Sequence record: OQ708376.1
Strand: one strand, 5' to 3'
Source of the DNA: Escherichia phage vB_EcoM_CRJP21
Length of the DNA: 64,000 bases
Of this stretch, positions 1-64,000 are shown in pieces; positions within the stretch are counted from its first letter, which is position 1; each line of letters opens with the position of its first letter. The notes under the pieces are model-generated. The model saw only the letters and a program-made list of their open reading frames with translations, ran no database searches and had not been told where the DNA came from. Both the position numbers and the translations under genes were made by a program.

Positions 1-577
1 AGTAGGCAGAGGAAGTCTGCCGTACTTTGTAGTTTCCAAGCTCCTTTTCCATTTTTCAAATTACATCAAATGTAATCAAAAGTAATCACGCAATGATTAG
101 TACTGAATTATTACTTTCACCTTAATTACAATTACCCTTTTACCCTTCGGGGTAAAATTCAATTACCCCTTGAGGCTCCAGCAAAAAGTTGGTTAGTACT
201 CCATCCTAAATCTCGATCCTAAAAATTTTGGAGTACCTATGAAATAAAAGTTGGATCTTCGAAAGTTGAAATTTACGTTGGGACGTTTATGATTTGTGGG
301 ATATAATGATGTTTGTAGACGGGTAGTTCTCAAGAATATCAGTACTGAAAGATGAAAGAAAGTTATTGACTTTATGATTCAGTACTGTATAATGTTCTAC
401 ATAGGGTGATGAGTTGCTGCGAACAATTCATTTACTCTACCTCCTGTCGTGAGACAGTACAGAAAAGATAGTTCCTCCTGTGGTGGTACATCTTTTTGAA
501 CCTCATATGAAAATCGTAATAACAGTACTGATATTAACAGAATGGTGTCAGTACTGATTTTAATCTAAAGCATTATG

Positions 578-597
578 CCACCAGCACAAGCTGGTGG
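578..597. repeat. inverted pair of Chi-like octamers CCACCAGC-acaa-GCTGGTGG (8-bp stem hairpin)
   Basis: direct read of sequence. Confidence 0.6.
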
Positions 598-721
598 ATT
601 CCCTCTAACAGTATTCAGTACTACATGATGGTCTTCATCCTCCTAGGGTAACATAGTGAGGGCTATGATGGCAGTACTGAATACTCCCTTTCAAAAGATA
701 GATCTATGGTATAGTACTGAC

Positions 722-762
722 GGATTTTGGGCGTAGTTACCCTGGATGGATTTTGGGCGTAG
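722..762. repeat. 2x direct repeat GGATTTTGGGCGTAG
   Basis: two identical 15-mers separated by 11 bp. Confidence 0.6.
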
Positions 763-789
763 ATATGTCTAGCCCTCCAGAAGTCTGGA

Positions 790-910
790 AGTAAAGATGG
801 CTATCCATCTAGACGGCTAAACGGCTAGATTTCTGGATGGCTGGATGGCTAGACGTTTGGACGGCTAAACGGCTAGATGGTTACACGTCTGGAAGTATAG
901 ACGGCTAAAT
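790..910. repeat. iteron-like cluster (GACGGCTAAACGGCTAGAT x2, GGATGGCT x3, TCTGGAAGTA x2)
   Basis: short direct repeats in non-coding DNA. Confidence 0.6.
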
Positions 911-1080
911 CAAAATTTTATTTTGTTTTTTCCAATAGTTCCCCTACCGCGTGGGGATAGTTTCCCCGCAGTATCTGGTGTTAGATTTTTCTGAATCTGG
1001 AATCATTATCTTATAAACTGGGGGCAATGTCAACGGCCTGGCCGGATATTTTTAAAAATTTTTTCAGTACTGAATTTTGG

Positions 1081-1145
1081 GCGTAACTATGCACCCGGTG
1101 GGCTTGAGTCTTTCTCGACTTGATGGAACTATTATACAGTACTGG
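1081..1145. repeat. R1 element copy 1 (GCACCCGGTGGG...CTTGATG...CAGTACTGG)
   Basis: about 60-bp element recurring at 3246 and 4778. Confidence 0.5.
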
Positions 1146-1536
1146 AAAAATAAAGCAATACCCTGGAAGCAAAAAAGTTTTAATTAATTTGCTTGCTATC
1201 CTGGGCCGGACTATGGTACTATATTTCAGTACTGAGAAAGTGCGTTTACCTGCTAGGGTGCGGGAGTGTATCCTTTTTTTATATCTTGAATTTTGGACGG
1301 ATCTTCCCACCCCCTGGGGTATCCGCTTTCTCGCGTCTATGTAGTAATTATACGCTTTTTCAGGATCAAGTCAATACCTAAAAACAAAATAATTGAAAAT
1401 AATTTAACGCGTTTAAACGGCCTGTAAAGCCCTGGAATGATTGGAATGGTGCAAATGTATAGCTTATGTGTATTAATGCGTTAGAATGCGTCTGAGGACG
1501 TTTTACGGGGTATAGGGATGATTTAGTGGATTGATT

Positions 1537-1624
1537 CAGTACTGAATAATAGTACTCCTATATAGAAAGATAGTTCCCCTGGATGATTGCAGTACTGAAT
1601 AATAGTACTCCTATATAGAAAGAA
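1537..1624. repeat. tandem direct repeat of a 34-bp unit (CAGTACTGAATAATAGTACTCCTATATAGAAAGA)
   Basis: two copies spaced about 54 bp. Confidence 0.6.
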
Positions 1625-1654
1625 AACTATTTTAAAAGTATTTGTAGAAAGTAC

Positions 1655-1682
1655 TTGCACCGTACTGATAAAAGCGTATAAT
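1655..1682 (+). promoter_or_regulatory. sigma70-like promoter (TTGCAC, 16 bp, TATAAT)
   Basis: consensus-like -35/-10 upstream of first gene. Confidence 0.6.
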
Positions 1683-1696
1683 GTTTTACATCGAGA

Positions 1697-1713
1697 GCGG
1701 GAACACTTCCCGC
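1697..1713 (+). promoter_or_regulatory. palindromic leader hairpin/operator GCGGGAA-cac-TTCCCGC
   Basis: first of about 20 similar GGGGAA-nnn-TTCCCC palindromes placed just after promoters. Confidence 0.55.
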
Positions 1714-1737
1714 TACACATTAAGAGAGATTAAAACG

Positions 1738-2100
1738 ATGGCGACTCAAATCAATAAAATCATGCTTAACCTGGTAAACTTCCGCGATGAGATGAAAGGT
1801 CTTCCGGCTGAAACTGTAAAAATTCACATTGCAGCTTATCGGGAACTTATTGCAATGTTGCCGCTTAAGCGTGAACAATACGCCGCTACTTTGATGCTGG
1901 ATTCAATGATCCATATAATGATCTCAAATGATTTGACGATGGTTTATCAGTATATGGGCGAAAATTTCGCGGTGTGTAGTAAGCCAGTACCAGGGATGGC
2001 AACAACTGAGGAATTGCACGGCTTAAACTTAAAACAAGATGCATGGGATAATATGCCTCGTTTCCTGGTATGGGCTGACAGTGGCAAAATTTACAAATAA
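1738..2100 (+). CDS. hypothetical protein (120 aa)
   Basis: track ORF restarted at internal ATG downstream of promoter and hairpin. Confidence 0.6.
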   Translation: MATQINKIMLNLVNFRDEMKGLPAETVKIHIAAYRELIAMLPLKREQYAATLMLDSMIHIMISNDLTMVYQYMGENFAVCSKPVPGMATTEELHGLNLKQDAWDNMPRFLVWADSGKIYK

Positions 2101-2114
2101 GTTTAATAAAGTAC

Positions 2115-2142
2115 TTGCAAACTATGTTTAATGGCGTATAAT
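2115..2142 (+). promoter_or_regulatory. sigma70-like promoter (TTGCAA, 16 bp, TATAAT)
   Basis: AAAGTACTTGCAA...GCGTATAAT consensus of this region. Confidence 0.65.
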
Positions 2143-2193
2143 GTTTTACATCAGGTGGGGAATAGTTCCCCACTATATAAGAGGATTAAAAAA

Positions 2194-2433
2194 ATGGCTA
2201 AATCAAAAATGTTCTTAGGTCACAAAAACAAAACTCATTGGAATGTAAGCCTTTGGATTAATAACGATGAGGGATTGTATCGGTTGGCCCAGGACTTTAT
2301 TAACGATAGCACTAATCGCAATGATGCGGCCCGTCATATGATGTTATTTTTAGAACAGACTGGACAAGATAAAACACCGGACGGATTCAAATATAGCACT
2401 ACTGCGATCCGTGCGGCGATGGTTGGAATGTAA
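2194..2433 (+). CDS. hypothetical protein (79 aa)
   Basis: internal ATG after promoter, hairpin 2156-2173 and RBS. Confidence 0.6.
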   Translation: MAKSKMFLGHKNKTHWNVSLWINNDEGLYRLAQDFINDSTNRNDAARHMMLFLEQTGQDKTPDGFKYSTTAIRAAMVGM

Positions 2434-2519
2434 TAGAATTTATTTAAAGTACTATCATTTTTTTGCGATAGTACTTTATAATAGTGTTTTATTCATACAC
2501 CAACGATAAGGGCAACAGC

Positions 2520-2786
2520 ATGAAAATTAAGTATTTTGCGACGCGTGAACAAGCTCGGATCGCCGCACGCCAGGACGGGGCAACGTTTAAAGATATGGGC
2601 GTACAATCGGAACGTGGTAAACGTTGGGCCATTGTAAAGCGTAGTACCGCCAGATCATTACAGTACTGGTTAGCGGCCTTAAAAAGTCCCGATAGTGTAT
2701 CGCGTCGAGTGGTAGAAATAAAGCTCGACCGAAAGGGCAACCGCGTGACCGTGTACCGTACTAAAAAGATTGCAGTACTTGAATAA
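2520..2786 (+). CDS. hypothetical protein (88 aa), paralog of 14497..14892
   Basis: shared KYFATREQARIAAR and DRKGNRVTVY motifs; RBS TAAGGG. Confidence 0.6.
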   Translation: MKIKYFATREQARIAARQDGATFKDMGVQSERGKRWAIVKRSTARSLQYWLAALKSPDSVSRRVVEIKLDRKGNRVTVYRTKKIAVLE

Positions 2787-2793
2787 AAAGTAC

Positions 2794-2821
2794 TTGCAAA
2801 CTATGTTTAATGGCGTATAAT
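2794..2821 (+). promoter_or_regulatory. sigma70-like promoter (TTGCAA, 16 bp, TATAAT)
   Basis: near-identical to promoter at 2115. Confidence 0.65.
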
Positions 2822-2873
2822 GTTTTACATCGAGAGCGGGAACTCTTCCCGCCTATAACCTGGAGTAATGAAA

Positions 2874-3104
2874 ATGACTAATATGTATATGACTGAAGTT
2901 AAAACCGTAAAAGATACTACCACGAATAAAACTACTTACTTACAGCGGATCTGTGGTGTATGGCAACGTATCAGCAAATCAAAGTACTTTAAATTAACAT
3001 CATATGCAAACCGTTCGGATTCATTCAGTACTGAAATAAAAGGTAATAAAGTACACCAATACGGCACTTATTATTATTATAGCCTGGACGCGATTGCAGT
3101 ATAA
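2874..3104 (+). CDS. hypothetical protein (76 aa)
   Basis: ATG 8 nt after GGAG; hairpin 2836-2852. Confidence 0.55.
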   Translation: MTNMYMTEVKTVKDTTTNKTTYLQRICGVWQRISKSKYFKLTSYANRSDSFSTEIKGNKVHQYGTYYYYSLDAIAV

Positions 3105-3186
3105 GCAGTTTACAAATCTTTACAATTGCCGGTATTGACTTATTTTGTCAGTACTGGCATAATGTATTCATTGGCAGATAAGCCGT

Positions 3187-3214
3187 AGCCCATAGGGTGC
3201 GGGAGTGTATCTAT
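3187..3214. repeat. R2 motif copy (AGCCCATAGGGTGCGGGAGTGTATCTAT)
   Basis: about 28-bp motif recurring at about 9172, 13194, 16469, 18721. Confidence 0.55.
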
Positions 3215-3245
3215 AGAAAAATTAGTTTAGTATAGTTACAATTGT

Positions 3246-3303
3246 GCACCCGGTGGGTTAGCTGTTGTCATGGGGTATATTATACCAGTACTTGATAATG
3301 CTG
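3246..3303. repeat. R1 element copy 2
   Basis: matches 1081..1145 and 4778..4833. Confidence 0.5.
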
Positions 3304-3354
3304 TCAATACTTTTTTTTTACTATTCAGTACTGAAAACTATTTTTAAAAAGTAC

Positions 3355-3382
3355 TTGCAAACTATGTTTAAAGGCGTATAAT
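3355..3382 (+). promoter_or_regulatory. sigma70-like promoter (TTGCAA-TATAAT), upstream member of tandem pair
   Basis: consensus boxes. Confidence 0.6.
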
Positions 3383-3389
3383 GTTTTAC

Positions 3390-3465
3390 ATCAGGACGGG
3401 GAACGAAATAAGTAACTTCCCGTTAAGTAGCCCAGGAGTAAGGCACACGAAAAACTCCCCTGATA
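3390..3465 (+). ncRNA. candidate structured leader / small RNA (copy 1)
   Basis: about 75-nt element with two imperfect hairpins between tandem promoters; second copy at 13300..13375. Confidence 0.35.
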
Positions 3466-3472
3466 AAATAGT

Positions 3473-3500
3473 TTGACAAATGTTTTTAAAAGCGTATAAT
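3473..3500 (+). promoter_or_regulatory. sigma70-like promoter (TTGACA, 16 bp, TATAAT)
   Basis: consensus boxes, proximal to gene 3533. Confidence 0.6.
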
Positions 3501-3532
3501 ACTTACATCAACTACTGAATGAGGGTTACAAA

Positions 3533-4144
3533 ATGAAAACTATCACTACTACTACTTATGTTATGGCTTTTTCTGAATTGAACGCAGAACAACAAACGTC
3601 AGCTATCGAACTGGTTCGGGAACGTGAAAAAAACTCAAACGACAATTATTTTTCTGAAAGTGAAATTGAATACTATAAAGAAACAGTACTACCGGAATAT
3701 GGCATTAATGACGCTGAAATACAATTCAGTGGTTTTTGGTCCCAGGGTGACGGTGCATCAATCAGTACTGACCACGTTGACGCAGTGAAGTTTTTACGCA
3801 AGGTAAGAGCATTAACTAAGTATCGCTCAATCCGTCACTTGCTGAATGAAGATGATTTGGCGATGAGTGTAAAACGTTCGCACTCCCACTACTCGCATGA
3901 GAATACTGTAAGCGGGTACATTGAATCGGCTTACACTGATTTAACCGCAAAACAAGAAACGTTAGTTAATGAGCTTGAGGAACTACTCACTGAAACTATT
4001 CGTGAATTGTCCCGCAAGTTGTACCGTGATTTAGAGAATGCATATGAGGATCAATTCACTACTGAAAACATTACGGCACTGATTGAGGGTAACGAATATC
4101 AATTCAATGTTATTGATGGCGTAGTAGAATCAATCGAATATTAA
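3533..4144 (+). CDS. hypothetical protein (203 aa)
   Basis: track ORF; RBS GAGGG 7 nt upstream. Confidence 0.7.
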   Translation: MKTITTTTYVMAFSELNAEQQTSAIELVREREKNSNDNYFSESEIEYYKETVLPEYGINDAEIQFSGFWSQGDGASISTDHVDAVKFLRKVRALTKYRSIRHLLNEDDLAMSVKRSHSHYSHENTVSGYIESAYTDLTAKQETLVNELEELLTETIRELSRKLYRDLENAYEDQFTTENITALIEGNEYQFNVIDGVVESIEY

Positions 4145-4156
4145 TTTAAAAAGTAC

Positions 4157-4184
4157 TTGCAAACTAAGTTTAAAAGCGTATAAT
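4157..4184 (+). promoter_or_regulatory. sigma70-like promoter (TTGCAA, 16 bp, TATAAT)
   Basis: consensus boxes. Confidence 0.6.
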
Positions 4185-4236
4185 ACTTTATATCGAGAGC
4201 GGGAATAGTTCCCGCTACTAATGAGGAATACTACAA

Positions 4237-4401
4237 ATGAATACTTTTACCTTCGCTCAATTGAACGCCCTGGATGTATTGTCTGATGCTTTGCGGGATG
4301 CAACTGAAAGCGGTTTATTTGACAATGTTGACATTCACCCTGATGTAATTAATAATTTTTGTGATGCTATCGCAGAAGTACTGGAAGATCTAAAAAAATA
4401 A
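4237..4401 (+). CDS. hypothetical small protein (54 aa, not in ORF track)
   Basis: hand translation MNTFTFAQLNALDV...; promoter + hairpin + RBS upstream. Confidence 0.55.
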   Translation: MNTFTFAQLNALDVLSDALRDATESGLFDNVDIHPDVINNFCDAIAEVLEDLKK

Positions 4402-4411
4402 TAGAAAGTAC

Positions 4412-4439
4412 TTGCAATTAGTTTTCAGTACTGTATAAT
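4412..4439 (+). promoter_or_regulatory. sigma70-like promoter with extended -10 (TTGCAA ... TGTATAAT)
   Basis: consensus boxes. Confidence 0.65.
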
Positions 4440-4489
4440 GGTTTACATCAAAGGGAGAAATGGTTCTCCCTGGTAATGAGGAAAATACA

Positions 4490-4711
4490 ATGGCTAATAT
4501 CACTACTCTTTCCCAACTGGAAGCACTGGTTAAATCTATGCGGGAACATGCTGACAAAATCGGCGTACAAGATCCAGCCGTTTGCTTCTGCGACGAATTG
4601 AATGATGATACCCTGGTAATAGCAGAAGTCCAGGACGTTTCTAACTATTCCTCGCGTTACACTGGCGGCGTAGCAAATAAAGGTGACTTCTGTTTATACC
4701 TTACAAAATAA
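4490..4711 (+). CDS. hypothetical protein (73 aa)
   Basis: internal ATG after leader hairpin 4453-4470; track start lies inside the hairpin. Confidence 0.6.
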   Translation: MANITTLSQLEALVKSMREHADKIGVQDPAVCFCDELNDDTLVIAEVQDVSNYSSRYTGGVANKGDFCLYLTK

Positions 4712-4712
4712 C

Positions 4713-4748
4713 AACGCGGGGAGATAATAACTCCCCGTTACTTTTTCA
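4713..4748 (+). terminator. rho-independent terminator (GC stem + T-run)
   Basis: CGGGGAG-ataataa-CTCCCCG then CTTTTT. Confidence 0.6.
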
Positions 4749-4777
4749 GTACTGAATCATTTAATAGACGGATCTCG

Positions 4778-4833
4778 GCACCCGGTGGGTTAGTGACTGT
4801 TTCGTCTTGATGTAGTAATTATGCCAGTACTGG
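4778..4833. repeat. R1 element copy 3
   Basis: GCACCCGGTGGGTTAG...CTTGATGTAGTAATTATGCCAGTACTGG. Confidence 0.5.
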
Positions 4834-4954
4834 ATGCACTTGTCAACAATTATTTTCCAAATACTTTTTATTAAAATACTTGCAATTAGTTTTTAAACGC
4901 GTATAATGTTTTGCATAGGGGGAGCGGTTCCCCTGGTAACTAAGGAATAATAAA

Positions 4955-5191
4955 ATGCTTGAACAAATCAAATCAACGTCTTCGAATGTAACGGGAACGG
5001 TAGCACACTTTACTAGTGATGAATCGCGGGGCGTTCCCTATTGTGCTGTACATGTAAACACTGAGGGTAACTACTGGTTTACGGTTTACGGATCATATTC
5101 ATTTGGACGGCCTGGACATCAAAAAATTCTGGATAAAGTACAACCAACGGGTAAAAATATCACTGCCGAAATGTTTTATAAAAAATCATAA
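4955..5191 (+). CDS. hypothetical protein (78 aa)
   Basis: track ORF; promoter + GGGGAGCGGTTCCCC hairpin + RBS. Confidence 0.65.
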   Translation: MLEQIKSTSSNVTGTVAHFTSDESRGVPYCAVHVNTEGNYWFTVYGSYSFGRPGHQKILDKVQPTGKNITAEMFYKKS

Positions 5192-5275
5192 AGTACTTGC
5201 AATTAGTTTTTAGTACTGTATAATATTTTACATCGCAAGGGGAAACGGTTTCCCCTGGTAACTAAGGATAATCAA

Positions 5276-5575
5276 ATGAAAATTGCAATCATCGCCCTGG
5301 CTTTATCTGTTTCCTCTTTCGCTGTTAATGCGTCATTAGATGTAAGTAGTGAAAAATTCATTCAGTGCACTGTTGCAATGACCGATGAAAGAACTGGCGA
5401 GATTGTATTAAAGGATTTAGAGATCCAGCCGGAAGCATTTAAAAACGGCCCGTTCCATGAAGAAGACGAAAACGGTAGCACGACAATTTATTATGATGCC
5501 AGTACTAAACGCGGTTCGGTCACTGTAATGGATACCGAGAAAGTAACTCATACCGGCGTTATTAATTGCCGTTGA
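5276..5575 (+). CDS. small secreted/periplasmic protein (Sec-type signal peptide)
   Basis: N-terminus MKIAIIALALSVSSFAVNA with AxA-like cleavage site. Confidence 0.6.
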   Translation: MKIAIIALALSVSSFAVNASLDVSSEKFIQCTVAMTDERTGEIVLKDLEIQPEAFKNGPFHEEDENGSTTIYYDASTKRGSVTVMDTEKVTHTGVINCR

Positions 5576-5596
5576 TAGATACTACGGGGTAACATC

Positions 5597-5827
5597 ATGA
5601 CTAAGCGAATTGTTTTACTTAACGAAAGCAGTACTACACAACTACTTAACGCCGTGCATTATGATATTGAAACGAGCGTTAATCTTATCAGTACTGTAGT
5701 TCTGTTGGACACTGGAAAGGTAGCCAATGATAAAGCGATTGCAGGTATACTAACGGATCTTGTGCCTGGTAGCAGTGCACCAATAACGTTAAATGGTAAA
5801 GTGTTTAATATTTTACTCACTGATTAA
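5597..5827 (+). CDS. hypothetical protein (76 aa)
   Basis: track ORF followed by terminator. Confidence 0.55.
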   Translation: MTKRIVLLNESSTTQLLNAVHYDIETSVNLISTVVLLDTGKVANDKAIAGILTDLVPGSSAPITLNGKVFNILLTD

Positions 5828-5833
5828 GTACAT

Positions 5834-5857
5834 AGCCCACCTGGTGGGCTTTTTTGT
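5834..5857 (+). terminator. rho-independent terminator
   Basis: AGCCCAC-ctg-GTGGGCT + TTTTTTG. Confidence 0.7.
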
Positions 5858-6060
5858 TTTTGTAGTATCGTAGTACTGAGATACTTTGAAAATAGTTTTA
5901 AAAAAGTAGTTGACATTACCACAGAAAAGCGTAGAATGTATTACATCAAGACGGGGAGCACTAAGTAGACCGCCAGTAAGTCGAACGAAAAACTGGACAC
6001 GTCGAGAAAACTTTGATACACTAATAAACGTAAACTAAACTTTAATTGAGGATTTATAAA

Positions 6061-6543
6061 ATGGCTAATGTAAAATCATTCATCAAAGCACTGGTAGCAA
6101 ATGAAACTAACGTCGCGGCTGAGATCCTGGCTGAACTGGATAACGATACCATGAAAGCGGTACGCAACAATTTTAACATTGCGTACAGTGAAGCTAAAGA
6201 ACTGCAAGCCAAAAAGGTAGCAGAACTGGAAGAACAGAAAAAAGCCCGTGAAGCAGAACTACAAGCAACAATTGAAAGTATTCAGGCGGCAGTGTCTGGA
6301 TTGGATCTGGAAGTGGTTGTAGAAATGGCACATAAAGCCCTGGCGGTTAAGTACGGTGAAGATAAGCCGGAATCTAAACCTAAAAAATGGATTCAAGAAC
6401 GTGTTACTGTAGTACTTGATAACGGTGAAGAACATTTGATTCCTGTACGCGGTAACTGCATTGCGGTAGTACTGGACGCTATCAAAGAAAGCGGTATGAC
6501 TCGCGAGGAATGGATCGAAGCTCATCGCAAAGTTGAAGCATAA
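6061..6543 (+). CDS. hypothetical protein (160 aa)
   Basis: ATG 8 nt after GAGGA; promoter TTGACA/TAGAAT at about 5908-5936. Confidence 0.65.
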   Translation: MANVKSFIKALVANETNVAAEILAELDNDTMKAVRNNFNIAYSEAKELQAKKVAELEEQKKAREAELQATIESIQAAVSGLDLEVVVEMAHKALAVKYGEDKPESKPKKWIQERVTVVLDNGEEHLIPVRGNCIAVVLDAIKESGMTREEWIEAHRKVEA

Positions 6544-6564
6544 CAATTAAAGTACTGAATCACT

Positions 6565-6592
6565 AGCCCACCTTAAACAGTGGGCTTTTTTG
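6565..6592 (+). terminator. rho-independent terminator
   Basis: AGCCCAC-loop-GTGGGCT + TTTTTT. Confidence 0.7.
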
Positions 6593-6610
6593 TGTCTGTA
6601 GTATTCCAGT

Positions 6611-6680
6611 CCACCAGCACCGCCTAGAATCGATTCTAACGCATTAAACTGATTATCTGATACATCGCCCTAGCTGGTGG
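6611..6680. repeat. inverted Chi-like octamer pair (CCACCAGC ... GCTGGTGG) flanking inverted R4 motif
   Basis: direct read. Confidence 0.55.
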
Positions 6681-6828
6681 CGTTAAGGTCGTTAGAATGC
6701 GATTGAGAGCGTTTAAAGTATTTTGCAAAAAGTAATAAAAAGTACTTGCACGATTAAGAGATTAGCGTATAATGTTTTACATCGAGAGGGGGAAACGGTT
6801 CTCCTTCCAAATCAAAGGAATCAAAACA

Positions 6829-7056: not shown

Positions 7057-7142
7057 AAAAAGTACTTGCAAAGTAAATCGAATAAAGTATAATACATTAC
7101 ATCAAGGGGAGAAATGATTCTCCCCACTACAAGGAAACTAAA

Positions 7143-7355: not shown

Positions 7356-7374
7356 AAATATTATCACAGTACTA

Positions 7375-23433: not shown

Positions 23434-23434
23434 C

Positions 23435-57007: not shown

Positions 57008-57056
57008 TCTGCTTATTAAAAATATCTAATTAACATTATATAAAAGGAATTTAAAA

Positions 57057-57362: not shown

Positions 57363-57370
57363 TAAACCAA

Positions 57371-57402
57371 AGGACGGGATTTGTTATCTCGTCCTTTTTT
57401 TG
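57371..57402 (+). terminator. rho-independent terminator
   Basis: AGGACGGGAT-ttgtt-ATCTCGTCCT + TTTTTTT. Confidence 0.7.
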
Positions 57403-57413
57403 TCTGGAGATGT

Positions 57414-58268
57414 ATGAAACTTTATCTAATCGTTGACTACAATAAGGATTATGCTGGTAACTTCACCGAAGATTCGGATGGATATTGCACATCGACTAAT
57501 GTCAATGTACGTATCAGTAATGCTCATGAACATGAATCTTGTAAAAATCTAAAAGATTTTATCACATACCGAGCATTTGAAAAGAACTTCTGCCGCAGTA
57601 GATATTCGAAGTTTGAGTACCCGTTAATTGATGTTCCTGATGATTTAATGTTCCAGTTAATGCTAACTGGAGTTCAAGATTATGATTACATAGCATATAA
57701 TCATATTACTAAGAAAATTTATATTGGTACATCATCACATGACACTTCTATGTATGCATCATGCCCAGATGATCGAATGAATGATAGAAAATCATACTAT
57801 AGTGGATCAGTTGGTTTAAATGATTCATTAAATGAAAATTTATTCTTTGAGTATGTTTATGATTACCATCATGAGAAAAAAGAACGTGAAGATTACTGTA
57901 TAGCAATTGATAGTACTAATGGGTATGAAGACGTGAAAGAAGCACTTATGCCGTACATTATTGAAAAGTACTACAAAGATTTTCAGTACTGTAGTAATTT
58001 TCTAATCAGAAATTCTATTATAATCGGTCGCCAATCTAGTGCATACTCTCAGTACTATAATGATTCACCAGTAGCATCGGCAAATGAAATGTGTGATATT
58101 TTACAAATTCCACGTGAAGATATGGCATTCATTTTTACATCTTTTATTGAAGATGATGAGTTGTATATTAAAAATAAACACCGTTTCATGCCAAGCAAGA
58201 TTGAGGTTATTCGAAGTTTTAGTGTTGATATACTAACAAATTTCACAGAAAAAACCGAATATAACTGA
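57414..58268 (+). CDS. large divergent family-2-like protein (284 aa)
   Basis: core DLMFQLMLTG; track start inside terminator, so restarted at internal ATG. Confidence 0.5.
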   Translation: MKLYLIVDYNKDYAGNFTEDSDGYCTSTNVNVRISNAHEHESCKNLKDFITYRAFEKNFCRSRYSKFEYPLIDVPDDLMFQLMLTGVQDYDYIAYNHITKKIYIGTSSHDTSMYASCPDDRMNDRKSYYSGSVGLNDSLNENLFFEYVYDYHHEKKEREDYCIAIDSTNGYEDVKEALMPYIIEKYYKDFQYCSNFLIRNSIIIGRQSSAYSQYYNDSPVASANEMCDILQIPREDMAFIFTSFIEDDELYIKNKHRFMPSKIEVIRSFSVDILTNFTEKTEYN

Positions 58269-58296
58269 GACAAATGATAAGTTAATGATATAATAT

Positions 58297-58331
58297 AAGG
58301 TGACAACATAATATGTTAGTCACCTTTTTTT
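58297..58331 (+). terminator. rho-independent terminator
   Basis: GGTGACAACATA-at-TATGTTAGTCACC + TTTTTTT. Confidence 0.7.
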
Positions 58332-58860
58332 AATCCTGAAAGGTTCCCATAAGGAAATGATTAAAAGCCTAATCCACTCGAAAATGTAGAGGGTAGATGA
58401 GTAGTCCTTTCAGTACGAACAGCAGATGAAACCCGTTAGATGATGGCATAGTTTGAACCACTCACGGCAATGCGGCTGTATAAAGAACTCCAATAGGATA
58501 AAGAGAGTTCCTCGATAGACATATAAGGATCGCACCTTACCAATTATCTAAGGGAGATTTCATAAGAAATATGCGGTCGGAATTATACAATATAGTTGCG
58601 TCCAAATTTTGTGAAATCAAATACAAGTACTGGTCATATGGTATTTGTATTATGTGTCGGGATGTTTAAGACCGACGACCGTTGCTACAAGAACCGCGAT
58701 AGAGAGAAACAGAGCAACCCGCTTTCGTCTCGTAAGAGAATTCGTGATATGAACTATGTGAAGGCCACCAGCGTCAAACTTTTTTGTTCTTTCCCCTGCG
58801 GGGGGATGAAATATGCTCAAGCAAACCCCGTCAATATTAATTAAAAGAAAATAGTACTTG
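58332..58860. other. non-coding GC-richer island (candidate structured RNA or decayed gene)
   Basis: no convincing ORF; several GC-rich hairpins (GTCGGGatgtttaagaCCGAC, CCCCTGCGGGG). Confidence 0.3.
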
Positions 58861-58871
58861 TAGAATTAGAC

Positions 58872-59492
58872 ATGCGTAGCATGATAATTCTACTGATGTT
58901 GATGCAATCAACGTCACGTATATTCATTGATGTTTCCATAGGAATAATGATGGCATTTATTAGAAAAGAAAAAACTGTTACTTATAAAACTTTGAATTTT
59001 GATGATTGCATTAATCAATCACAAGACGAAGATATCTTTACTGGATATGTGGTTATTAAAGAAAAAGGATGCATTTCTTATATAAAGGAATTGCAAAATG
59101 GAATTGAAGTAACTTCAGTTAAATTACTTCCTACTCAAAAACCAACAATATCAAAAGCCCAGTATGGTAATTATTTTGAAGAAAGATATAGTAATAATTC
59201 AATAAGTGTTAAGGCTCATATTATTAAAGGAGAACTAGAAGGAGAATATAGAAAATACAACCCACAAGGAAAATGTGTTTGGGTTAAATACTTCAATTCA
59301 GGATATGATGTAACATCTGAAATTATAGAGTTCTTAGGTTTAAAATGTACCCCTGAGACTATTCACGATTACAAGTTCAATACTGAAGAAGAGTTTAATC
59401 TGATGATGCGTTACGGTTCACATTTTAAATTTTTATATGAATATAACATTGACAGTAGTACTTTTGATAAGATAGTACACAACTGTCTCTAA
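58872..59492 (+). CDS. hypothetical protein (alt start 58950)
   Basis: track ORF; hydrophobic N-terminal extension may not be translated. Confidence 0.5.
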   Translation: MRSMIILLMLMQSTSRIFIDVSIGIMMAFIRKEKTVTYKTLNFDDCINQSQDEDIFTGYVVIKEKGCISYIKELQNGIEVTSVKLLPTQKPTISKAQYGNYFEERYSNNSISVKAHIIKGELEGEYRKYNPQGKCVWVKYFNSGYDVTSEIIEFLGLKCTPETIHDYKFNTEEEFNLMMRYGSHFKFLYEYNIDSSTFDKIVHNCL

Positions 59493-59508
59493 CAAAAGGA
59501 ATTATATA

Positions 59509-60030
59509 ATGTCGAAGAAGGATGCTTCGAAAAAACATTCAGTACATTTTAGTACTGGAAAAGATAACTGGACAACTCCAAAGGATTTCTTTGAAGATTT
59601 GGATGAACTCTGGGAATTTACACTAGATGCAGCATGTGTCAAAGAAACTGCATTGTGTGATAATTTTTTCACTCCAGAAGATGATTCACTGTCACAGGAT
59701 TGGGGAAATAATATAGTTTGGTTGAATCCACCATATAGTGACTTGAAAACTTGGTTATCCAAAGCAGTAGATGCATATAATAACGGGGCAACTGTAGTTA
59801 TTCTTGTACCCTCAAGAACCGATACAATTGCTTTTCAGGATTATGCTGCTAAAATATGTGATTGTATTTGTTTTATTAAGGGAAGATTGAGATTTGGTAT
59901 ACCAGAAGAACCCGATAAGAAAACAGATTCAGCACCATTTCCTTCGTGTCTGATAGTACTGGATAAGTACTTAACCACTGCTAAAATCAATTATCTTAAA
60001 TCTCTTGGGTTGGTGATGAAGAATTTATGA
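59509..60030 (+). CDS. phage-type DNA N6-adenine methyltransferase (Dam-like)
   Basis: WTTPKDFFEDL N-terminal motif and NPPY catalytic motif. Confidence 0.7.
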   Translation: MSKKDASKKHSVHFSTGKDNWTTPKDFFEDLDELWEFTLDAACVKETALCDNFFTPEDDSLSQDWGNNIVWLNPPYSDLKTWLSKAVDAYNNGATVVILVPSRTDTIAFQDYAAKICDCICFIKGRLRFGIPEEPDKKTDSAPFPSCLIVLDKYLTTAKINYLKSLGLVMKNL

Positions 60031-60560
60031 AAGAAACATGCGTATTAACTTTTGGACGTGTTAATCCCGTACATCGTGGACATGGTTTAGTTTTTGAAAA
60101 GGCCAAAACATTACAAGAACAGTACAATGCTGATTTAAAAATATATCTAAGCACCAGTACTGACAATATAAAAAACCCACTCCCACCTGAACTAAAAATG
60201 TATTATACAGAGGGATTCTATCCTTCAGTGCAAGAGAACATCTACACAGAAGACAATCTATTTGATATAATGAGAGAACTGGATGGAAAGTACTTAGATG
60301 TTCTTTTCATATGTGGTTCTGACCGTATTGATTCTTTTCAAAAAACTCTTGACATGTACAATGGTAAGTTGTATAATTTTTGTAGTATAAAAGCAATTCA
60401 AGCAGGTATTGACCGTAATGTAAGTCAATATAGCTCAACACAAATGCGTAACTTCGCAAAAAATGAAGATTTTGATAGTTTTCGTGAGTTTTTACCTGGA
60501 AATGACGAGGACTTAAAAATACAATTATTTGAAGACGTTATAAAATACATGAGGAAATAA
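60027..60560 (+). CDS. HxGH-motif nucleotidyltransferase (NMN adenylyltransferase-like)
   Basis: TFGRVNPVHRGH resembles GxFxPxHxGH; SSTQMR resembles the ISSTxxR motif. Confidence 0.5.
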   Translation: MKETCVLTFGRVNPVHRGHGLVFEKAKTLQEQYNADLKIYLSTSTDNIKNPLPPELKMYYTEGFYPSVQENIYTEDNLFDIMRELDGKYLDVLFICGSDRIDSFQKTLDMYNGKLYNFCSIKAIQAGIDRNVSQYSSTQMRNFAKNEDFDSFREFLPGNDEDLKIQLFEDVIKYMRK

Positions 60561-60562
60561 TT

Positions 60563-60856
60563 ATGTCAGTACTGTTCAAAACCAATCCAGTACTTTGGGA
60601 TCAAAATGAGCAATCAGGATTTCGTTCCATCCATGTTGAATACAAAGGTAATACTGTAGTTGCAATTATTGCTAACAAAACTCTAGGAAACTGGACTGCA
60701 CAGGTTGTTCCTATGGGATATTCTTACACATCTGATGAGGTTCAATTCCTGGCTGAACTATATCGTCAAGTGCCGTTTATCATTAATGTACTAGAAGGTA
60801 ATGATACATTATCACATGCAGATGTGATTAATTTTCTTGGAAACTTGCATGTGTGA
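60563..60856 (+). CDS. hypothetical protein (97 aa)
   Basis: track ORF; coupled. Confidence 0.5.
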   Translation: MSVLFKTNPVLWDQNEQSGFRSIHVEYKGNTVVAIIANKTLGNWTAQVVPMGYSYTSDEVQFLAELYRQVPFIINVLEGNDTLSHADVINFLGNLHV

Positions 60857-61136
60857 TGAAATAAATCTTACAGGATATTTTTTACAAGAATCAATGATTA
60901 AATTTAGTGATAAATTTTCAGTACTGGATGGTATCGAAATGTGGCATGTCAAACCACTGTTCCACACTTTCAGTAAAGAGCACAAAATGTTATTGACTGA
61001 AGCCAGTAAATCAAATAACATATGTGAAATCAAAATTGGTGTAAATGTCTATAAAGGGATGGTTATCTTTTTTGACAATAACAGCAACTACTTTTATATT
61101 GTTAAGGAGCATTACGTTGACAAATACAAATACTAA
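60837..61136 (+). CDS. hypothetical protein (99 aa)
   Basis: track ORF; overlaps neighbours. Confidence 0.45.
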   Translation: METCMCDEINLTGYFLQESMIKFSDKFSVLDGIEMWHVKPLFHTFSKEHKMLLTEASKSNNICEIKIGVNVYKGMVIFFDNNSNYFYIVKEHYVDKYKY

Positions 61137-61731
61137 TACATATTTCCGTTATCTTCGCTTAGGTCTTTCCCTACGTCCGATCCGTGGAAAGTGCGATTCA
61201 CTCGCTGACCTTGACTATGCATATGCATTACATCATGAAGGTGTACAGTATGTATTGGGTGATTATGGTGAATTTGAAGAAACAAATGACAGTACTGGAA
61301 TTAATGCTGGTGTAGAAAATCTTAACAACATTGCTAACAGTTCTCGCCATGACATTGTGTTACAGATTCAAAACTTTATTGAGCAGCACACAGGTAAACG
61401 TGTTTGGTGCTATGTCGGTACGGATGCACAAATGTCAATTTCATTCGGTAACGATGAAGGATATGTTGCACAGCTTATTATGGATTTTGAATCTGAAGAG
61501 AAGTTTTTAGAATTCAAAGAAAAGATTATTCAGTCACTTGTTGATATGGGTATCCCCGAAGATAAAATGCCAGAAGTCCAAAACATTGATGAATTTGTTT
61601 TGATTCCATCTGATGAGAAATATGATGCAATGTTTACTGCTCTTAATATTCCAGGAGTTATTGTGGAGTACTTTGATGATGGTGATGATAGTATCTATAT
61701 CGATCTAGATGACGATGACGACGATGAATAA
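61045..61731 (+). CDS. hypothetical acidic protein (C-terminal D/E tail; start uncertain)
   Basis: long ORF ending DLDDDDDDE; first 92 nt overlap upstream ORF in another frame. Confidence 0.45.
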   Translation: MSIKGWLSFLTITATTFILLRSITLTNTNTNTYFRYLRLGLSLRPIRGKCDSLADLDYAYALHHEGVQYVLGDYGEFEETNDSTGINAGVENLNNIANSSRHDIVLQIQNFIEQHTGKRVWCYVGTDAQMSISFGNDEGYVAQLIMDFESEEKFLEFKEKIIQSLVDMGIPEDKMPEVQNIDEFVLIPSDEKYDAMFTALNIPGVIVEYFDDGDDSIYIDLDDDDDDE

Positions 61732-61737
61732 TGTACA

Positions 61738-61766
61738 TAGCCCGACATAAGTTCGGGCTATTTTTG
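61738..61766 (+). terminator. rho-independent terminator
   Basis: TAGCCCGA-cataag-TTCGGGCTA + TTTTT. Confidence 0.75.
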
Positions 61767-61777
61767 TAAGGGGATAT

Positions 61778-62053
61778 ATGAATTATAAAGTTCTACAATA
61801 TACATACAGTGTTTTGTTTGATTTACATCACAATGGAAGATATCTCAATACAATACGAGAAAACACATTCACTCATACTATCTGGATTAATCACTTAATA
61901 ATGATACGTGAATATTTTGTTAATAGTGAGATAATCATTCGTGGTAAAAAACAGAAGATAGAACAAGTTAATAGTTTTGGTGGTAAATTAGTACTATCAT
62001 TTATAGATAGTAATACTAATGAAAGATATAGTATAGATTTGGTGGACATATGA
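61778..62053 (+). CDS. family-3 small protein
   Basis: N-terminal MNYKVLQYTYSVLFDL; tandem paralogs follow. Confidence 0.55.
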   Translation: MNYKVLQYTYSVLFDLHHNGRYLNTIRENTFTHTIWINHLIMIREYFVNSEIIIRGKKQKIEQVNSFGGKLVLSFIDSNTNERYSIDLVDI

Positions 62054-62316
62054 ATTATAAAGATTTCCTACTAACATACAAGATTATTCGAGATTTAGCA
62101 CACGACAATGATAGCCCTAGTCTAGAAGACACATGCACTGAAATGATTCATACGATTCGTGGTAAGATTAAAAAAAAATTCAGTACTGTTATTATTGGTG
62201 ATGACCATGCAGAATTTTCTGATATAATCATTAGACGTGATGGTAAAGTTGAGGTTCAGTACTACACTGATTTTGGATTTACCAGTATTCCGTTGGAGAT
62301 ATTCCCTTGGGATTAA
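62050..62316 (+). CDS. family-3 small protein
   Basis: MNYKDFLLTYKIIRDL; ATGA coupling. Confidence 0.55.
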   Translation: MNYKDFLLTYKIIRDLAHDNDSPSLEDTCTEMIHTIRGKIKKKFSTVIIGDDHAEFSDIIIRRDGKVEVQYYTDFGFTSIPLEIFPWD

Positions 62317-62618
62317 ATTTAAATGATATACAATTCACTTATAAGATCCTATATGATTTGTATGATGTATACCTTGTTAGTAACAACATAGGTTCACATA
62401 ACCGATCCAAAGAACAACCATTTATTGATTTATATATTGAGTACTTAGATTCAGTAGGTGAATATATAAAAAAGAATTACAGTACTTTTATCGATGGAAA
62501 TGATAAATTCGATTTCTATGGTGTGCAATCATATAATGGTATAATCCATGTTCAATTTCAGGAAATAACCGATAGGGGATTTATCGAGATTAAAGTTGTG
62601 AAGTTGGTGAATTTATAA
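62307..62618 (+). CDS. family-3 small protein (TTG start)
   Basis: LNDIQFTYKILYDL; no in-frame ATG. Confidence 0.45.
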   Translation: MGLNLNDIQFTYKILYDLYDVYLVSNNIGSHNRSKEQPFIDLYIEYLDSVGEYIKKNYSTFIDGNDKFDFYGVQSYNGIIHVQFQEITDRGFIEIKVVKLVNL

Positions 62619-62628
62619 GAGGTTACAT

Positions 62629-62940
62629 ATGTTATTAAATGATATACAATTCACATACAAATTTTTGTATATCCAATACGCTACGGTTGATGCTGGAGAA
62701 TATCTCTACAGTGAAATCTATCGTTCGGTATGGATAAAGTTTTTGGATGAATTACATGAATATTACCATGATTTGTGTATAGTTCGTGATAATAAAATAT
62801 ACAAATTCCGCGATATTGTTAGTCATAGCGGTAAGCTACGATTGGAATTAAGTACTGATAGTGATGTTGATTGGATTGGTGTAAATTTACTGGAATTGAA
62901 GAATGAAAAACAACTTAAAGGAAATACAAGTATTTTATAA
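62629..62940 (+). CDS. family-3 small protein
   Basis: LNDIQFTYKFLYIQY. Confidence 0.55.
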   Translation: MLLNDIQFTYKFLYIQYATVDAGEYLYSEIYRSVWIKFLDELHEYYHDLCIVRDNKIYKFRDIVSHSGKLRLELSTDSDVDWIGVNLLELKNEKQLKGNTSIL

Positions 62941-63187
62941 ATTCTTATACTTATCATATGTAAAAGATGAGTACTATGAAAGTGTGTATTATTTTTTATG
63001 GCAACATTACCGTACTATAGTAAGAGATTTATATATAGGAAAATCTATCATATCCAATGGTGAAAAATGTATCTGTACGGATGTAGTTAGTTTTAATGGT
63101 TCTTTAACACTGTGTTTCAGATGCGATAATAATAGTGGGTCATTTTCATTAAACGTATATCAGTTAGAAGGAATAAATTTTGAATAA
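62903..63187 (+). CDS. family-3 small protein
   Basis: LKEIQVFYKFLYLSY. Confidence 0.5.
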   Translation: MKNNLKEIQVFYKFLYLSYVKDEYYESVYYFLWQHYRTIVRDLYIGKSIISNGEKCICTDVVSFNGSLTLCFRCDNNSGSFSLNVYQLEGINFE

Positions 63188-63380
63188 ATGTCCATATTGT
63201 AACAGTACTCAATTAGCTCGTTTCCGTTTAGATTCAGACTGGGCGACTGGTGCTGGTGATTTCTTCCCTATTAATGATGATGCGGAATACACCGAAGAAC
63301 AACACAAAGATTTTGATAAATCATGGCGACCTGACATTGAGTGCATTTATTGCCTTAATTGTGAGCGTGTTCATGACTAA
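63180..63380 (+). CDS. zinc-ribbon-like small protein (two CxxC pairs; TTG start)
   Basis: CPYCNS ... CIYCLNC. Confidence 0.4.
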   Translation: MNKCPYCNSTQLARFRLDSDWATGAGDFFPINDDAEYTEEQHKDFDKSWRPDIECIYCLNCERVHD

Positions 63381-63407
63381 AGCTGAACTAATAGTTCATA
63401 CATATAA

Positions 63408-63636
63408 AATGATATCAAGTACTGAGTTATCATATAGTGCAGATAATCCAGTACTGGATTATTTTGTTGAATTATTGAAAGAGCATTATATTGGTAAATC
63501 ACTGATTCTTAATAATATTAATTTCACGGTAAAGGATGTAGCACCTGGAAAAAACGTACTAATAGTATGTGTTACTTCATCTGATAACCCAGTATACCCA
63601 ATATCAATAATTTTTGAGATATTAGGAGATTTATGA
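63408..63636 (+). CDS. hypothetical small protein (possible family-3)
   Basis: internal ATG of track ORF 63250..63636. Confidence 0.4.
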
Positions 63637-63923
63637 ATATCATTTTAATGCAGAAAACATATGCTATATTGGTGAAAGATTATTCCATTACTTTCGATTC
63701 ACAAGAAAGTGCTCTACATAACCTATACAAAAACGTAACACAAGAATACAGAAATATGTTTTCTGACTTAGTAGTAGGAAGGTATTTCAGTACTAGAAAA
63801 TACCCAAAACTTCAAATAGTTGATGTTTCTTTTTATTTCAATGGTCATATTACTATTCATAGTTTAGACCAAGATTCAACAACGTACTTAAACTTTTCAT
63901 TTGATGAGGTAACATTTTTATGA
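63633..63923 (+). CDS. family-3 small protein
   Basis: MNIILMQKTYAILVKDY; coupled. Confidence 0.5.
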   Translation: MNIILMQKTYAILVKDYSITFDSQESALHNLYKNVTQEYRNMFSDLVVGRYFSTRKYPKLQIVDVSFYFNGHITIHSLDQDSTTYLNFSFDEVTFL

Positions 63924-64000
63924 GAACAGTATTTTTTATCTGGAGTCTTTTTTCATTGGCAGTACTGACAGTATGTGGGATTTGTTTCCTTTCATCAATT

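Follow-up and report, generated by a model that had tools for sequence, protein, structure and literature searches.

Why should a large phage write a restriction-type palindrome into its DNA hundreds of times, when phages usually avoid such words? The question is raised by the 64,000-nucleotide stretch of Escherichia phage vB_EcoM_CRJP21 (OQ708376.1) analysed here, referred to throughout as the window, in which the hexamer AGTACT is found 254 times. AGTACT is the target of ScaI and of Eco255I, an isoschizomer from E. coli, and it is amplified in a clade of the largest coliphages and in an unrelated prophage family. A preliminary description of the window had noticed the excess by eye and proposed that it marks a functional site. 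The analysis reveals that the enrichment is real, ancient and under selection, and it is unreported in the literature searched: no report of an AGTACT excess in phages was found in work on fEgEco12, CBB, RaK2, SlmA, giant-virus and marine methylomes or restriction-site avoidance. We tentatively interpret AGTACT as a positively selected self tag on duplex DNA, read by a symmetric and specific protein that the phage lineage is likely to supply, an interpretation that the sequence evidence favours while leaving it somewhat short of an even chance.

Size and form of the excess

AGTACT ranks first of the 3935 hexamers observed in the window, with one site per 252 bp, where the preliminary description had estimated one per few hundred bp; the next palindrome, ATTAAT, occurs 81 times. 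None of 100 dinucleotide-preserving shuffles reached 254 (17.3 ± 4.3, maximum 33); the excess is stronger than had been claimed. Comparison with Markov models, which had been named as a check, gives expectations of 16.8, 44, 98 and 210 for orders 1 to 4; the order-4 value is an unfair and circular null, because AGTAC and GTACT derive mostly from AGTACT itself. All nine sites said to lie within the first 720 bp were located (Table 1), and the reported spread over coding regions in several frames was confirmed, with 68, 42 and 64 sites in frames 0, 1 and 2 and 80 in intergenic DNA. Density is higher between genes (8.2 per kb) than within them (3.2 per kb), and 69% of the sites are in coding DNA. 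The claim that the motif runs throughout the window stands only for the overall excess, as the distribution is not uniform and two blocks (A and B in Table 1) have no site at all.

The amplified word is exact. In the 350-kb genome of the relative OR844650 (loci L002-L008) the nine classes of single-mismatch variants occur at 0.6-2.2 times expectation and the exact hexamer at 9.1 times, an all-or-none specificity for a palindrome of the kind typical of type II restriction-modification targets. The flanks extend the symmetry: C precedes the hexamer at 112 of the 254 sites (44%), G follows it at 126 (50%), and T and A are preferred three to four bases out, giving the symmetric consensus T-T-n-C-AGTACT-G-n-A-A, or TTnCAGTACTGnAA. 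Longer forms in the window are CAGTACTG (62 copies), AAAGTACTTGCA (15), AGTACTTGCA (17) and AGTACTGTATAAT (9), the last three being promoter forms that are all confined to positions 1-20100.

Local clusters of the motif take several shapes. At 523-556 two of the CAGTACTG sites (524 and 550) form the arms of an inverted repeat with a 14-bp stem, followed by a T-rich tail, which a scanner called terminator-like. The non-coding leader of a Klebsiella jumbo phage (OU509535; L017 10181-10247) contains a perfect tandem array, (ATTCAGTACT)x5, which places five sites one helical turn apart.

Selection on the word

Several measures reveal that the word itself is the object of selection. When synonymous codons were shuffled within genes, coding DNA retained 52.6 ± 6.2 sites against the 174 observed. 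In the 350-kb relative 52.6% of Ser-Thr dipeptides are written AGT-ACT, where codon usage predicts 15.9% and where the reverse-order control, Thr-Ser as ACT-AGT, reaches 7.5%; similarly, 40% of Val-Leu dipeptides are written GTA-CTN against 17.7% expected. The dipeptides themselves are affected, ST, VL and QY standing at 1.34-1.44 times expectation and their reversals TS, LV and YQ at 0.94-1.03 times in the same genome. Judged by these frequencies, selection on AGTACT is strong enough to alter protein sequences. Codon usage and base composition are ruled out as causes by the dinucleotide and synonymous-codon shuffles together with the codon-pair and dipeptide tests. Since even the commonest 10-mer has just 17 copies, no longer repeat carries the signal, which also rules out a spreading repeat.

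Against a relative of 96.3% identity, 95.1% of sites have stayed intact; the corresponding figures are 85.8% for hexamers in general and 88.2% for control hexamers taken from the flanks. Gains (9) and losses (12) are balanced. Over longer distances the positions turn over: orthologous genes of other genera retain a site at the same position in 14 of 79, 3 of 25, 4 of 17 and 8 of 42 cases. Between genera, which share 40-62% protein identity, 18-25% of positions are common, and density nevertheless holds at 1.8-4 per kb. Outside the terminal repeat the sites are spaced more evenly than random, with a coefficient of variation of the gaps of 0.87 against 1.03 ± 0.04 in simulations; over 280 kb the gaps have a mean of 451 bp and a maximum of 2103 bp, where simulated maxima were 2.6-4.5 kb. 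Conservation, turnover at maintained density and even spacing together argue for selection on the density, or coverage, of the exact word. With the fixed promoter positions in four genera described below, these results uphold the earlier proposal of a functional site over one that merely reflects composition.

Two processes that could act on such a word were tried and rejected. A mutational drive of the type of very-short-patch (VSP) repair is excluded by the balance of gains and losses and by the lack of any depleted precursor: GGTACT, AATACT and AGCACT, the neighbours by transition, stand at 2.15, 1.23 and 1.79 times expectation, and the lone value of 0.6 among the single-mismatch neighbours is due to avoidance of GGWCC. 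Hotspots of recombination or cleavage were rejected because mosaic breakpoints between relatives lie no nearer to sites than chance (p = 0.53 and 0.086, in a test of low power).

Distribution among phages and hosts

In the 350-kb relative AGTACT is again the commonest hexamer, with 918 copies against 101 expected and at least four in every 5-kb bin. It is enriched 10-19 times in RaK2, GAP32, Munch, fHe-Yen9-04 and one Klebsiella jumbo phage, and all the enterobacterial Rak2-like genera sampled share the enrichment. The Pseudomonas relative PA5oct, with 4 sites in 40 kb, is not enriched; an unrelated rV5-like coliphage is depleted (6 in 100 kb against 26 expected) and an unrelated Vequintavirus is near expectation (7 in 50 kb against 10). 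In host DNA there are 3 sites where 4.8 are expected (E. coli) and 2 where 1 is expected (Leclercia), which amounts to 0.06-0.1 per kb, or one per 10-17 kb, compared with about 4 per kb in the phages.

When IMG/VR was scanned for paired CAGTACTG and about 120 contigs were sampled, a second enriched lineage appeared on contigs of approximately 25-35 kb that are unrelated to jumbo phages and carry genes for a serine recombinase, a lambda-type portal, an HK97 capsid and a J-like tail tip. These are Leclercia prophages, temperate and siphovirus-type, with a G+C content near 40% in a host of about 57%. A nucleotide search with the family returned no match to known phages, and the family is previously undescribed. 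Inside the prophage AGTACT occurs about four times per kb, against 2 sites in 19 kb of flanking chromosome, and distant relatives of the family (28-41% identity) are also enriched. Its preference for the flanks of TTnCAGTACTGnAA and its codon effects match those of the jumbo phages, and flank preferences are alike across all enriched lineages. A contig first taken for a third lineage (L087) turned out to be a fragment of a Rak2-like terminal repeat.

Absence of GCGC and avoidance of other palindromes

The enriched lineages share a second peculiarity. GCGC is absent from the window and from the 350-kb relative (0 against 179 expected), and every enriched lineage has none where 18-179 would be expected. 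Host DNA contains 7-11 copies per kb, one every 100-150 bp, and counts are normal in PA5oct, the rV5-like phage and the Vequintavirus. Among the IMG/VR loci GCGC is lacking from 39 of 51 enriched loci and from 4 of 69 others, counts in which many loci belong to the same lineages.

Other words are avoided as well. TGGCCA, CCATGG, GAGGAG, GGTCTC, CAGCTC, GGTACC and CGTACG are absent or nearly so from the window and from OR844650, as are most other GC-containing 6-bp palindromes. In all, 19 palindromes of that class other than AGTACT are missing or almost missing, and AGTACT is the single GC-containing 6-bp palindrome to be amplified. Most of the other GC-containing 6-bp palindromes are missing alike from the jumbo phages, the prophage family and the rV5-like phage, a shared loss that, on these counts, is ordinary restriction avoidance. 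The absence of GCGC is instead specific to the enriched lineages, because the rV5-like phage, though it avoids some of the same palindromes, keeps GCGC.

AGTACT in early promoters

The left part of the window corresponds to the direct terminal repeat of the genome, which in fEgEco12 measures 20,993 bp (PMC13070987) and whose final 40 nt match window positions 20113-20152. It is an array of short genes, each provided with a near-consensus sigma-70-type promoter and a stem-loop, and it is into these promoters that AGTACT has been built. Three kinds of fusion of the motif with the core elements occur, AGTAC-TTGCA, TTGAC-AGTACT and AGTACT-G-TATAAT (or AGTACT-GG-CATAAT), and 26 of the 39 strong sigma-70-type promoter calls in the repeat bear such a fusion. 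The preliminary description was thus correct in placing the motif at the -35 box and in the extended -10 of early promoters. Upstream of the -10 hexamer, sites begin at distances of 7 and 27-28 bp in four genera, GAP32, Munch and fHe-Yen9-04 having the same offsets, and spacings between paired sites peak at 20-24 bp, approximately two helical turns. Both positions are occupied in the promoter AGTACTtgcaattagttttcAGTACTgtataat (Table 1), with one AGTACT fused 5' of the -35 box (TTGCAA) and the other immediately upstream of TATAAT.

An SOS explanation of the paired sites was considered and set aside. In a LexA box the arms TACTG and CAGTA, 10 bp apart, would require an 18-bp spacing between starts, where the observed peak is at 20-24 bp and only three pairs lie at 18; by inspection, the right arm is also missing in promoters of the AGTACTGTATAATAGTTTACA type.

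The cassettes of T4-type phages known as PeSL (promoter-early stem-loop), reportedly described by Arbiol and colleagues in 2010, resemble the terminal repeat in that every small gene has a near-identical early promoter and a stem-loop at its flanks. The likeness is one of cassette architecture only, since PeSL involves no genome-wide hexamer and no AGTACT element.

Comparison with known systems

In its behaviour AGTACT resembles Chi (GCTGGTGG, RecBCD) and the uptake signal sequences (USS) and DNA uptake sequences (DUS) of Pasteurellaceae and Neisseria, short exact words in many-fold excess whose density, rather than position, is kept by selection or drive, and which tell own from foreign DNA. 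The genome-wide excess, the presence of sites within genes in any frame and the turnover of positions at constant density are all found here. Unlike AGTACT, however, these words are asymmetric 8-12-mers that are orientation-dependent or orientation-biased, occur in the genomes of cells and are read by known proteins (RecC, ComP); AGTACT is a 6-bp phage palindrome with palindromic flanks, is denser (2.6-6 per kb) and is also placed in promoters.

The stoperators of cluster A mycobacteriophages and the C1 operators of phage P1 offer a second comparison, as operator-like words scattered at promoters and within transcription units, and AGTACT sites likewise lie over promoters and inside transcription units. 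Stoperators are asymmetric 13-bp words, present in some 25-35 copies per genome, mostly intergenic and oriented with transcription. AGTACT, in contrast, has about 900 sites that are mostly coding, palindromic, evenly spaced and subject to turnover, and the scans of the window and the prophages recognized no repressor that could correspond to the immunity repressor of the stoperators.

The resemblance to GATC and its Dam methyltransferase, with MutH and SeqA, lies in a palindrome every few hundred bp, in a phage-encoded Dam-family adenine methyltransferase and in a maximum gap of about 2 kb, near the repair range; outside the motif-free blocks the sites are close enough together for action within 1-2 kb. 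Unlike AGTACT, GATC is not over-represented in E. coli beyond composition, no MutH-like or SeqA-like partner was found for the phage motif, and the second enriched lineage is without a methyltransferase. A ScaI-type restriction-modification target has the identical word and the same all-or-none 6-bp palindromic specificity, but such targets are normally avoided by phages or neutral in their genomes, and AGTACT is amplified 9-19 times.

SlmA, the nucleoid-occlusion factor of E. coli, has a similar distribution across gammaproteobacteria, and its binding sites (GTGAGTACTCAC) share their central six bases with the phage motif. The site is a 12-bp palindrome, GTRAGYRCTYAC, in which G1, T2, a purine at position 3, A4 and G5 are required (PMC3020112). 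Phage sites prefer C at position 3, and the 918 AGTACT cores in 350 kb include no full or relaxed SlmA match. The GTR flank is found at 1.03% of half-sites, where 2.8% would be expected, a 2.7-fold depletion, and G at -1 is depleted to 0.26-0.59 times expectation in all lineages. With the wrong flanks and no full sites, titration of SlmA is rejected.

Candidate readers

The only recognizable DNA-acting enzyme in the window is the Dam-family N6-adenine methyltransferase of Table 1, which scores 89.6 bits against TIGR01712, under the cut-off of 97. Phage SP27 carries a copy with 100% identity, the gene keeps its synteny in GAP32 and fHe-Yen9-04, and its orthologues at 55% identity or more sit on jumbo-sized contigs. 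As the driver of the enrichment it was rejected, since the trait does not track the enzyme family and the second lineage is without it. For the open reading frame (ORF) that adjoins it upstream, considered as a possible hidden nuclease, an AlphaFold model built on an alignment of only 8 sequences was unusable, with a predicted local distance difference test (pLDDT) score of 46.5; an ORF of about 175 aa occupies this place in GAP32 and fHe-Yen9-04, a match judged by position only.

The second methyltransferase of the genus, a C5-cytosine enzyme (Table 1), is DNMT3-like by its structural matches, probably CpG-specific and hence irrelevant as a modifier of AGTACT. RaK2 DNA has been reported to be methylated (PMC3622015), and the CpG methylation reported for that phage fits such an enzyme.

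A gene shared between the two enriched lineages was a further route to the reader. The prophage at L139 carries an endonuclease-like gene (20807-21667) with treble-clef zinc fingers and a T5orf172-type domain, and this homing-endonuclease-like gene has distant jumbo-phage paralogues at ECO103 117590-118510 and 259542-260324. The gene is missing from the other prophage (L138) at that position, and the candidate was dropped.

Motif-free blocks

Blocks A and B together have no sites where 35-45 would be expected at local density, and they are separated by an island of 16. Of the 20 genes in block A, one has a homologous counterpart among the loci sampled from other genera, the gene family of the block being genus-specific, and for block B no homologues were found among those loci. 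GCGC is already missing from both blocks, and a gap matching block A is also present in a relative. As the blocks consist of a paralogue array and orphan genes essentially without homologues in the sampled genera, they can be read as younger DNA, and the simplest reading of the sequences would be that GCGC is purged fast and AGTACT accrues slowly. The paralogue array spans 20220-26162, with a further member at 40930-41121, and numbers 23 members in the window, whose start and stop codons overlap. The PHROGs family phrog_4148 matches 26 window ORFs and is probably the same family as these tandem paralogues.

What AGTACT may be

Palindromic sharpness, symmetric flanks, even coverage and integration into promoters are best fitted by a recognition tag on duplex DNA. 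Such a tag would be spread evenly along the phage genome, with TTnCAGTACTGnAA as its extended form, and its reader would be symmetric, probably homodimeric, and as sharply specific as a type II restriction or modification enzyme. The phage lineage is the most likely supplier of the reader, as the trait follows phage lineage and unrelated coliphages are not enriched. The tag and the absence of GCGC would together render phage DNA sharply unlike that of the host, a protein bound at early-promoter sites would contact or occlude RNA polymerase, and one reader could in this way both mark or protect the genome and control early transcription. The DNA of fEgEco12 is cut as predicted by ten restriction enzymes (PMC13070987) and is therefore free of wholesale base hypermodification. 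The sequences show the enrichment, selection acting on the DNA, turnover of positions at constant density, even spacing, the promoter geometry and the distribution among lineages; we infer from them that the reader is a protein, which genome encodes it, and what its binding or modification would do. The earlier suggestion of a motif for a phage-encoded DNA-binding, nicking or modifying activity is thus sustained in one half, the specificity and symmetric flanks fitting a dimeric protein, and only partly in the other, phage origin, for which the lineage-restricted trait must be set against prophages that share no such gene and a Dam-family enzyme that does not track the motif.

Several findings weigh against a self tag with a phage-supplied reader. 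Some 12.6 kb of the window (20%) is free of sites, so that coverage is not strictly required. Pfam and PHROGs scans turned up no helix-turn-helix (HTH) or other recognizable DNA-binding domain, either in 150 window proteins or among the genes of the prophages, and no endonuclease in the window proteins, and so yielded no reader. Dam-family homologues at 44-48% identity occur in other phage types that have no AGTACT enrichment, and the same scans of its genes detected no methyltransferase in the Leclercia prophage family. When the prophages were compared with jumbo-phage proteomes by tblastn and phmmer, they had in common only a lysozyme domain and a mobile endonuclease-like domain; with unrelated prophages carrying the same motif and sharing no reader gene, a reader encoded by the host fits at least as well. 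Finally, AGTACT in promoters always shares a base with a core element, and the promoter sites may be mere packing where the motif is tolerated, with no regulatory role.

One of these objections leads to the alternative that a conserved protein of Enterobacterales binds TTnCAGTACTGnAA, and that two unrelated phage lineages independently loaded their genomes with sites to recruit, titrate or exploit it. The same core and weak flanks in both lineages without a shared reader gene speak for it, as does the fact that the identified hosts of enriched phages are all Enterobacterales while the Pseudomonas relative PA5oct lacks the motif; these phages also already exploit a host signal, Chi being highly enriched in their early regions. 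Other large virulent coliphages, however, derive no benefit from the motif (the rV5-like phage and the Vequintavirus), host DNA gives it no special treatment, and SlmA, the one known host protein with this core, fails the test and leaves no other known candidate. We regard a host reader as unlikely, though likelier than the other alternatives. A little less likely in our estimation is a methylation mark, in which the Dam-family enzyme would methylate the adenine of AGTACT, protecting it from restriction of the ScaI or Eco255I type and giving the phage a private counterpart of GATC that could serve in strand discrimination, sequestration or timing. This would account for the need of a site at intervals of no more than about 2 kb, since methyl-directed repair works over a range comparable to the mean of about 450 bp and maximum of 2.1 kb found here, and it accords with the target-like palindrome and its sharp specificity, with the synteny of the PF05869 enzyme in other genera and its close orthologues on jumbo-sized contigs, and with the reported methylation of RaK2 DNA. 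About 900 unprotected ScaI-type sites would, moreover, be a serious liability in genomes from which other palindromes have been purged, and the rV5-like phage avoids AGTACT. Yet the characterized members of the family are GATC enzymes, and protection by itself would leave the site at a neutral frequency rather than in 9-19-fold excess. The equally enriched Leclercia prophages, the unenriched phages with 44-48% homologues, the missing MutH-like or SeqA-like partner and the probable CpG specificity of the genus C5 enzyme all count against it too.

The promoter sites invite an explanation by transcription only, with AGTACT as the site of an early repressor or activator and the coding sites as spill-over, as with stoperators. 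Positions fixed relative to -35 and -10 in four genera, pairs 20-24 bp apart on the same face of the helix, a density that peaks in the early terminal repeat and the clustered intergenic sites of a Leclercia prophage all suit an operator. We nonetheless consider this improbable, since genes, late structural ones included, contain 69% of the window sites and most of the 918 found genome-wide, in all three frames and under selection strong enough to shift dipeptide usage; their positions turn over with density and even spacing kept, and the palindrome has no orientation, unlike stoperators. That the word has no function, and arose by drive of the VSP type, polymerase bias or the spread of a short repeat, is very improbable. 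The order-4 model nearly reproduces the count (210 against 254) and a slow genome-wide process would predict that younger genus-specific DNA lacks the motif, but the order-4 expectation is circular, a drive should consume precursors that in fact stand at 1.2-2.2 times expectation (apart from the value explained by GGWCC), and gains match losses, no 10-mer exceeds 17 copies, spacing is too even, dipeptide usage is shifted and the same motif is found in two lineages with different replication machinery. Least credible of all is a signal in RNA, AGUACU serving as a nuclease or RNA-binding-protein site in transcripts. Transcription covers nearly all of this DNA, and whichever strand is copied a palindrome yields an identical RNA word, but the flanks are symmetric although almost all window genes lie on one strand, many sites lie upstream of transcription starts within promoter elements, and an RNA motif has no reason to need palindromy.

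Returning to the duplex-DNA tag, a bolder extension, which we offer as speculation of low probability, is that a guild of enterobacterial phages, comprising the Rak2-like jumbo myoviruses and the Leclercia temperate family, uses a two-word code in place of base modification to discriminate self from host. A GCGC-directed nuclease could then destroy host DNA while an AGTACT reader marks, protects or activates that of the phage, and the temperate phage may have converged on the code, or copied it, to survive or exploit jumbo infections. More generally, the motif implies an abundant, highly specific and undescribed DNA-reading activity, one that acts at about 900 sites per genome and is wired into the early promoters. 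Finding its reader would bear on self/host discrimination in unmodified jumbo phages, on the switching of early transcription and on how jumbo phages afford some 900 ScaI-type sites. The combination of AGTACT excess and zero GCGC would be a cheap signature for enriched lineages in metagenomes, and recoding or engineering of these therapeutic-candidate phages should keep AGTACT.

Layout of the window and other observations

The positions of the features discussed are collected in Table 1. By megablast the window is the left end of an Asteriusvirus-type jumbo coliphage, its alignment with Escherichia phage fEgEco12 starting at base 1 of that phage with 95.7% identity. The + strand carries nearly all genes of the window.

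Table 1. Features of the window and of related records (positions refer to the window unless another record is named)
Feature	Position	Strand	Remarks
Direct terminal repeat, early region	1..20152	+	129 AGTACT sites, 6.4 per kb
Nine AGTACT sites, mostly cAGTACTga	99..718	.	Non-coding left terminus; sites at 99, 195, 341, 381, 524, 550, 617, 673, 713
Four-site cluster	1538..1609	.	Two copies of gattcAGTACTgaataatAGTACTcctatatagaaaga
Early promoter with motif at both fixed positions, AGTACTtgcaattagttttcAGTACTgtataat	4407..4439	+	Sites 20 bp apart
Second promoter type, AGTACTattgacatagtttgatAGTACTggcataat	7368..7403	+	Scanner: TTGACA, 17-bp spacer, CATAAT, TG upstream
Motif-free block A	20153..25193	+	Tandem array of ~70-90-aa paralogues; 0 sites
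Island between motif-free blocks	25194..27772	+	16 sites
Motif-free block B	27773..35320	+	18 orphan genes; 0 sites; GCGC also absent
Tightly packed genes	35321..64000	+	109 AGTACT sites (3.8 per kb), almost all in coding sequence
ORF adjoining methyltransferase upstream	58872..59492	+	No Pfam hit; 7 close homologues; likely true start M27
Dam-family N6-adenine DNA methyltransferase, 173 aa	59509..60030	+	PF05869, E = 2.3e-31
C5-cytosine methyltransferase, 286 aa	L140 444-1304 = fEgEco12 279943-280803		Best solved-structure matches: mammalian DNMT3A/B catalytic domains
Leclercia prophage family	L138 10300-21785; L139 10300-21785; IMG/VR loci L022-L129		AGTACT excess and GCGC absence; L138 and L139 are Leclercia chromosomes

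The terminal repeat is also rich in Chi. On the + strand GCTGGTGG occurs nine times within these 20 kb (590, 6673, 10498, 11960, 13228, 15578, 16983, 18560 and 18783), where the number due to chance is estimated, though not computed for this segment, at well below 1, and several copies lie in the stem-loops that follow genes; copies on the - strand of the window are at 578, 6611 and 58765. The early regions of GAP32, Munch and fHe-Yen9-04 contain 11, 13 and 9 copies in both orientations, and the 350-kb relative has 28 against 3 expected. These counts suggest that the phage may exploit the host RecBCD-Chi signal to protect its ends.

Further repeats accompany the early genes. An identical 28-nt hairpin, AAAGGGATTGACTCCGGTCAGTCCCTTT, followed by GCTATTATAT, is found at 13140-13167, 16410-16437 and 18668-18695, with a variant at 9113-9140; each of these three to four copies in the terminal repeat is situated upstream of a conserved stretch whose end is a promoter containing AGTACT. 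At 720-1000 of the non-coding left terminus, beside the AGTACT cluster, there are direct repeats, GGATTTTGGGCGTAG in three copies and units of GGCTAAACGGCTAGAT and GGCTAGAC, which may be terminus or packaging signals.

Some early cassettes have close counterparts in phages that are not AGTACT-rich. Three small early genes (2136-2435, 13756-14068 and 17195-17382) and a 44-bp promoter segment (4172-4215) show 82-95% nucleotide identity to rV5-like (Phapecoctavirus) and Vequintavirinae phages, matches that indicate recent swapping of early-gene cassettes. Several of the GenBank records matched are labelled as Campylobacter phages, one of them being classed in Vequintavirus, a coliphage genus.

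A last observation concerns late transcription. The T4-type late-promoter word TATAAATA, which has been reported as a late promoter for CBB and GAP32 (PMC5259590), is scarce over the whole genome of OR844650 (14 against 68 expected), in which TAAATA/TATTTA stands at 0.31 times expectation, a scarcity that would fit use of the word as a late promoter together with its avoidance elsewhere.

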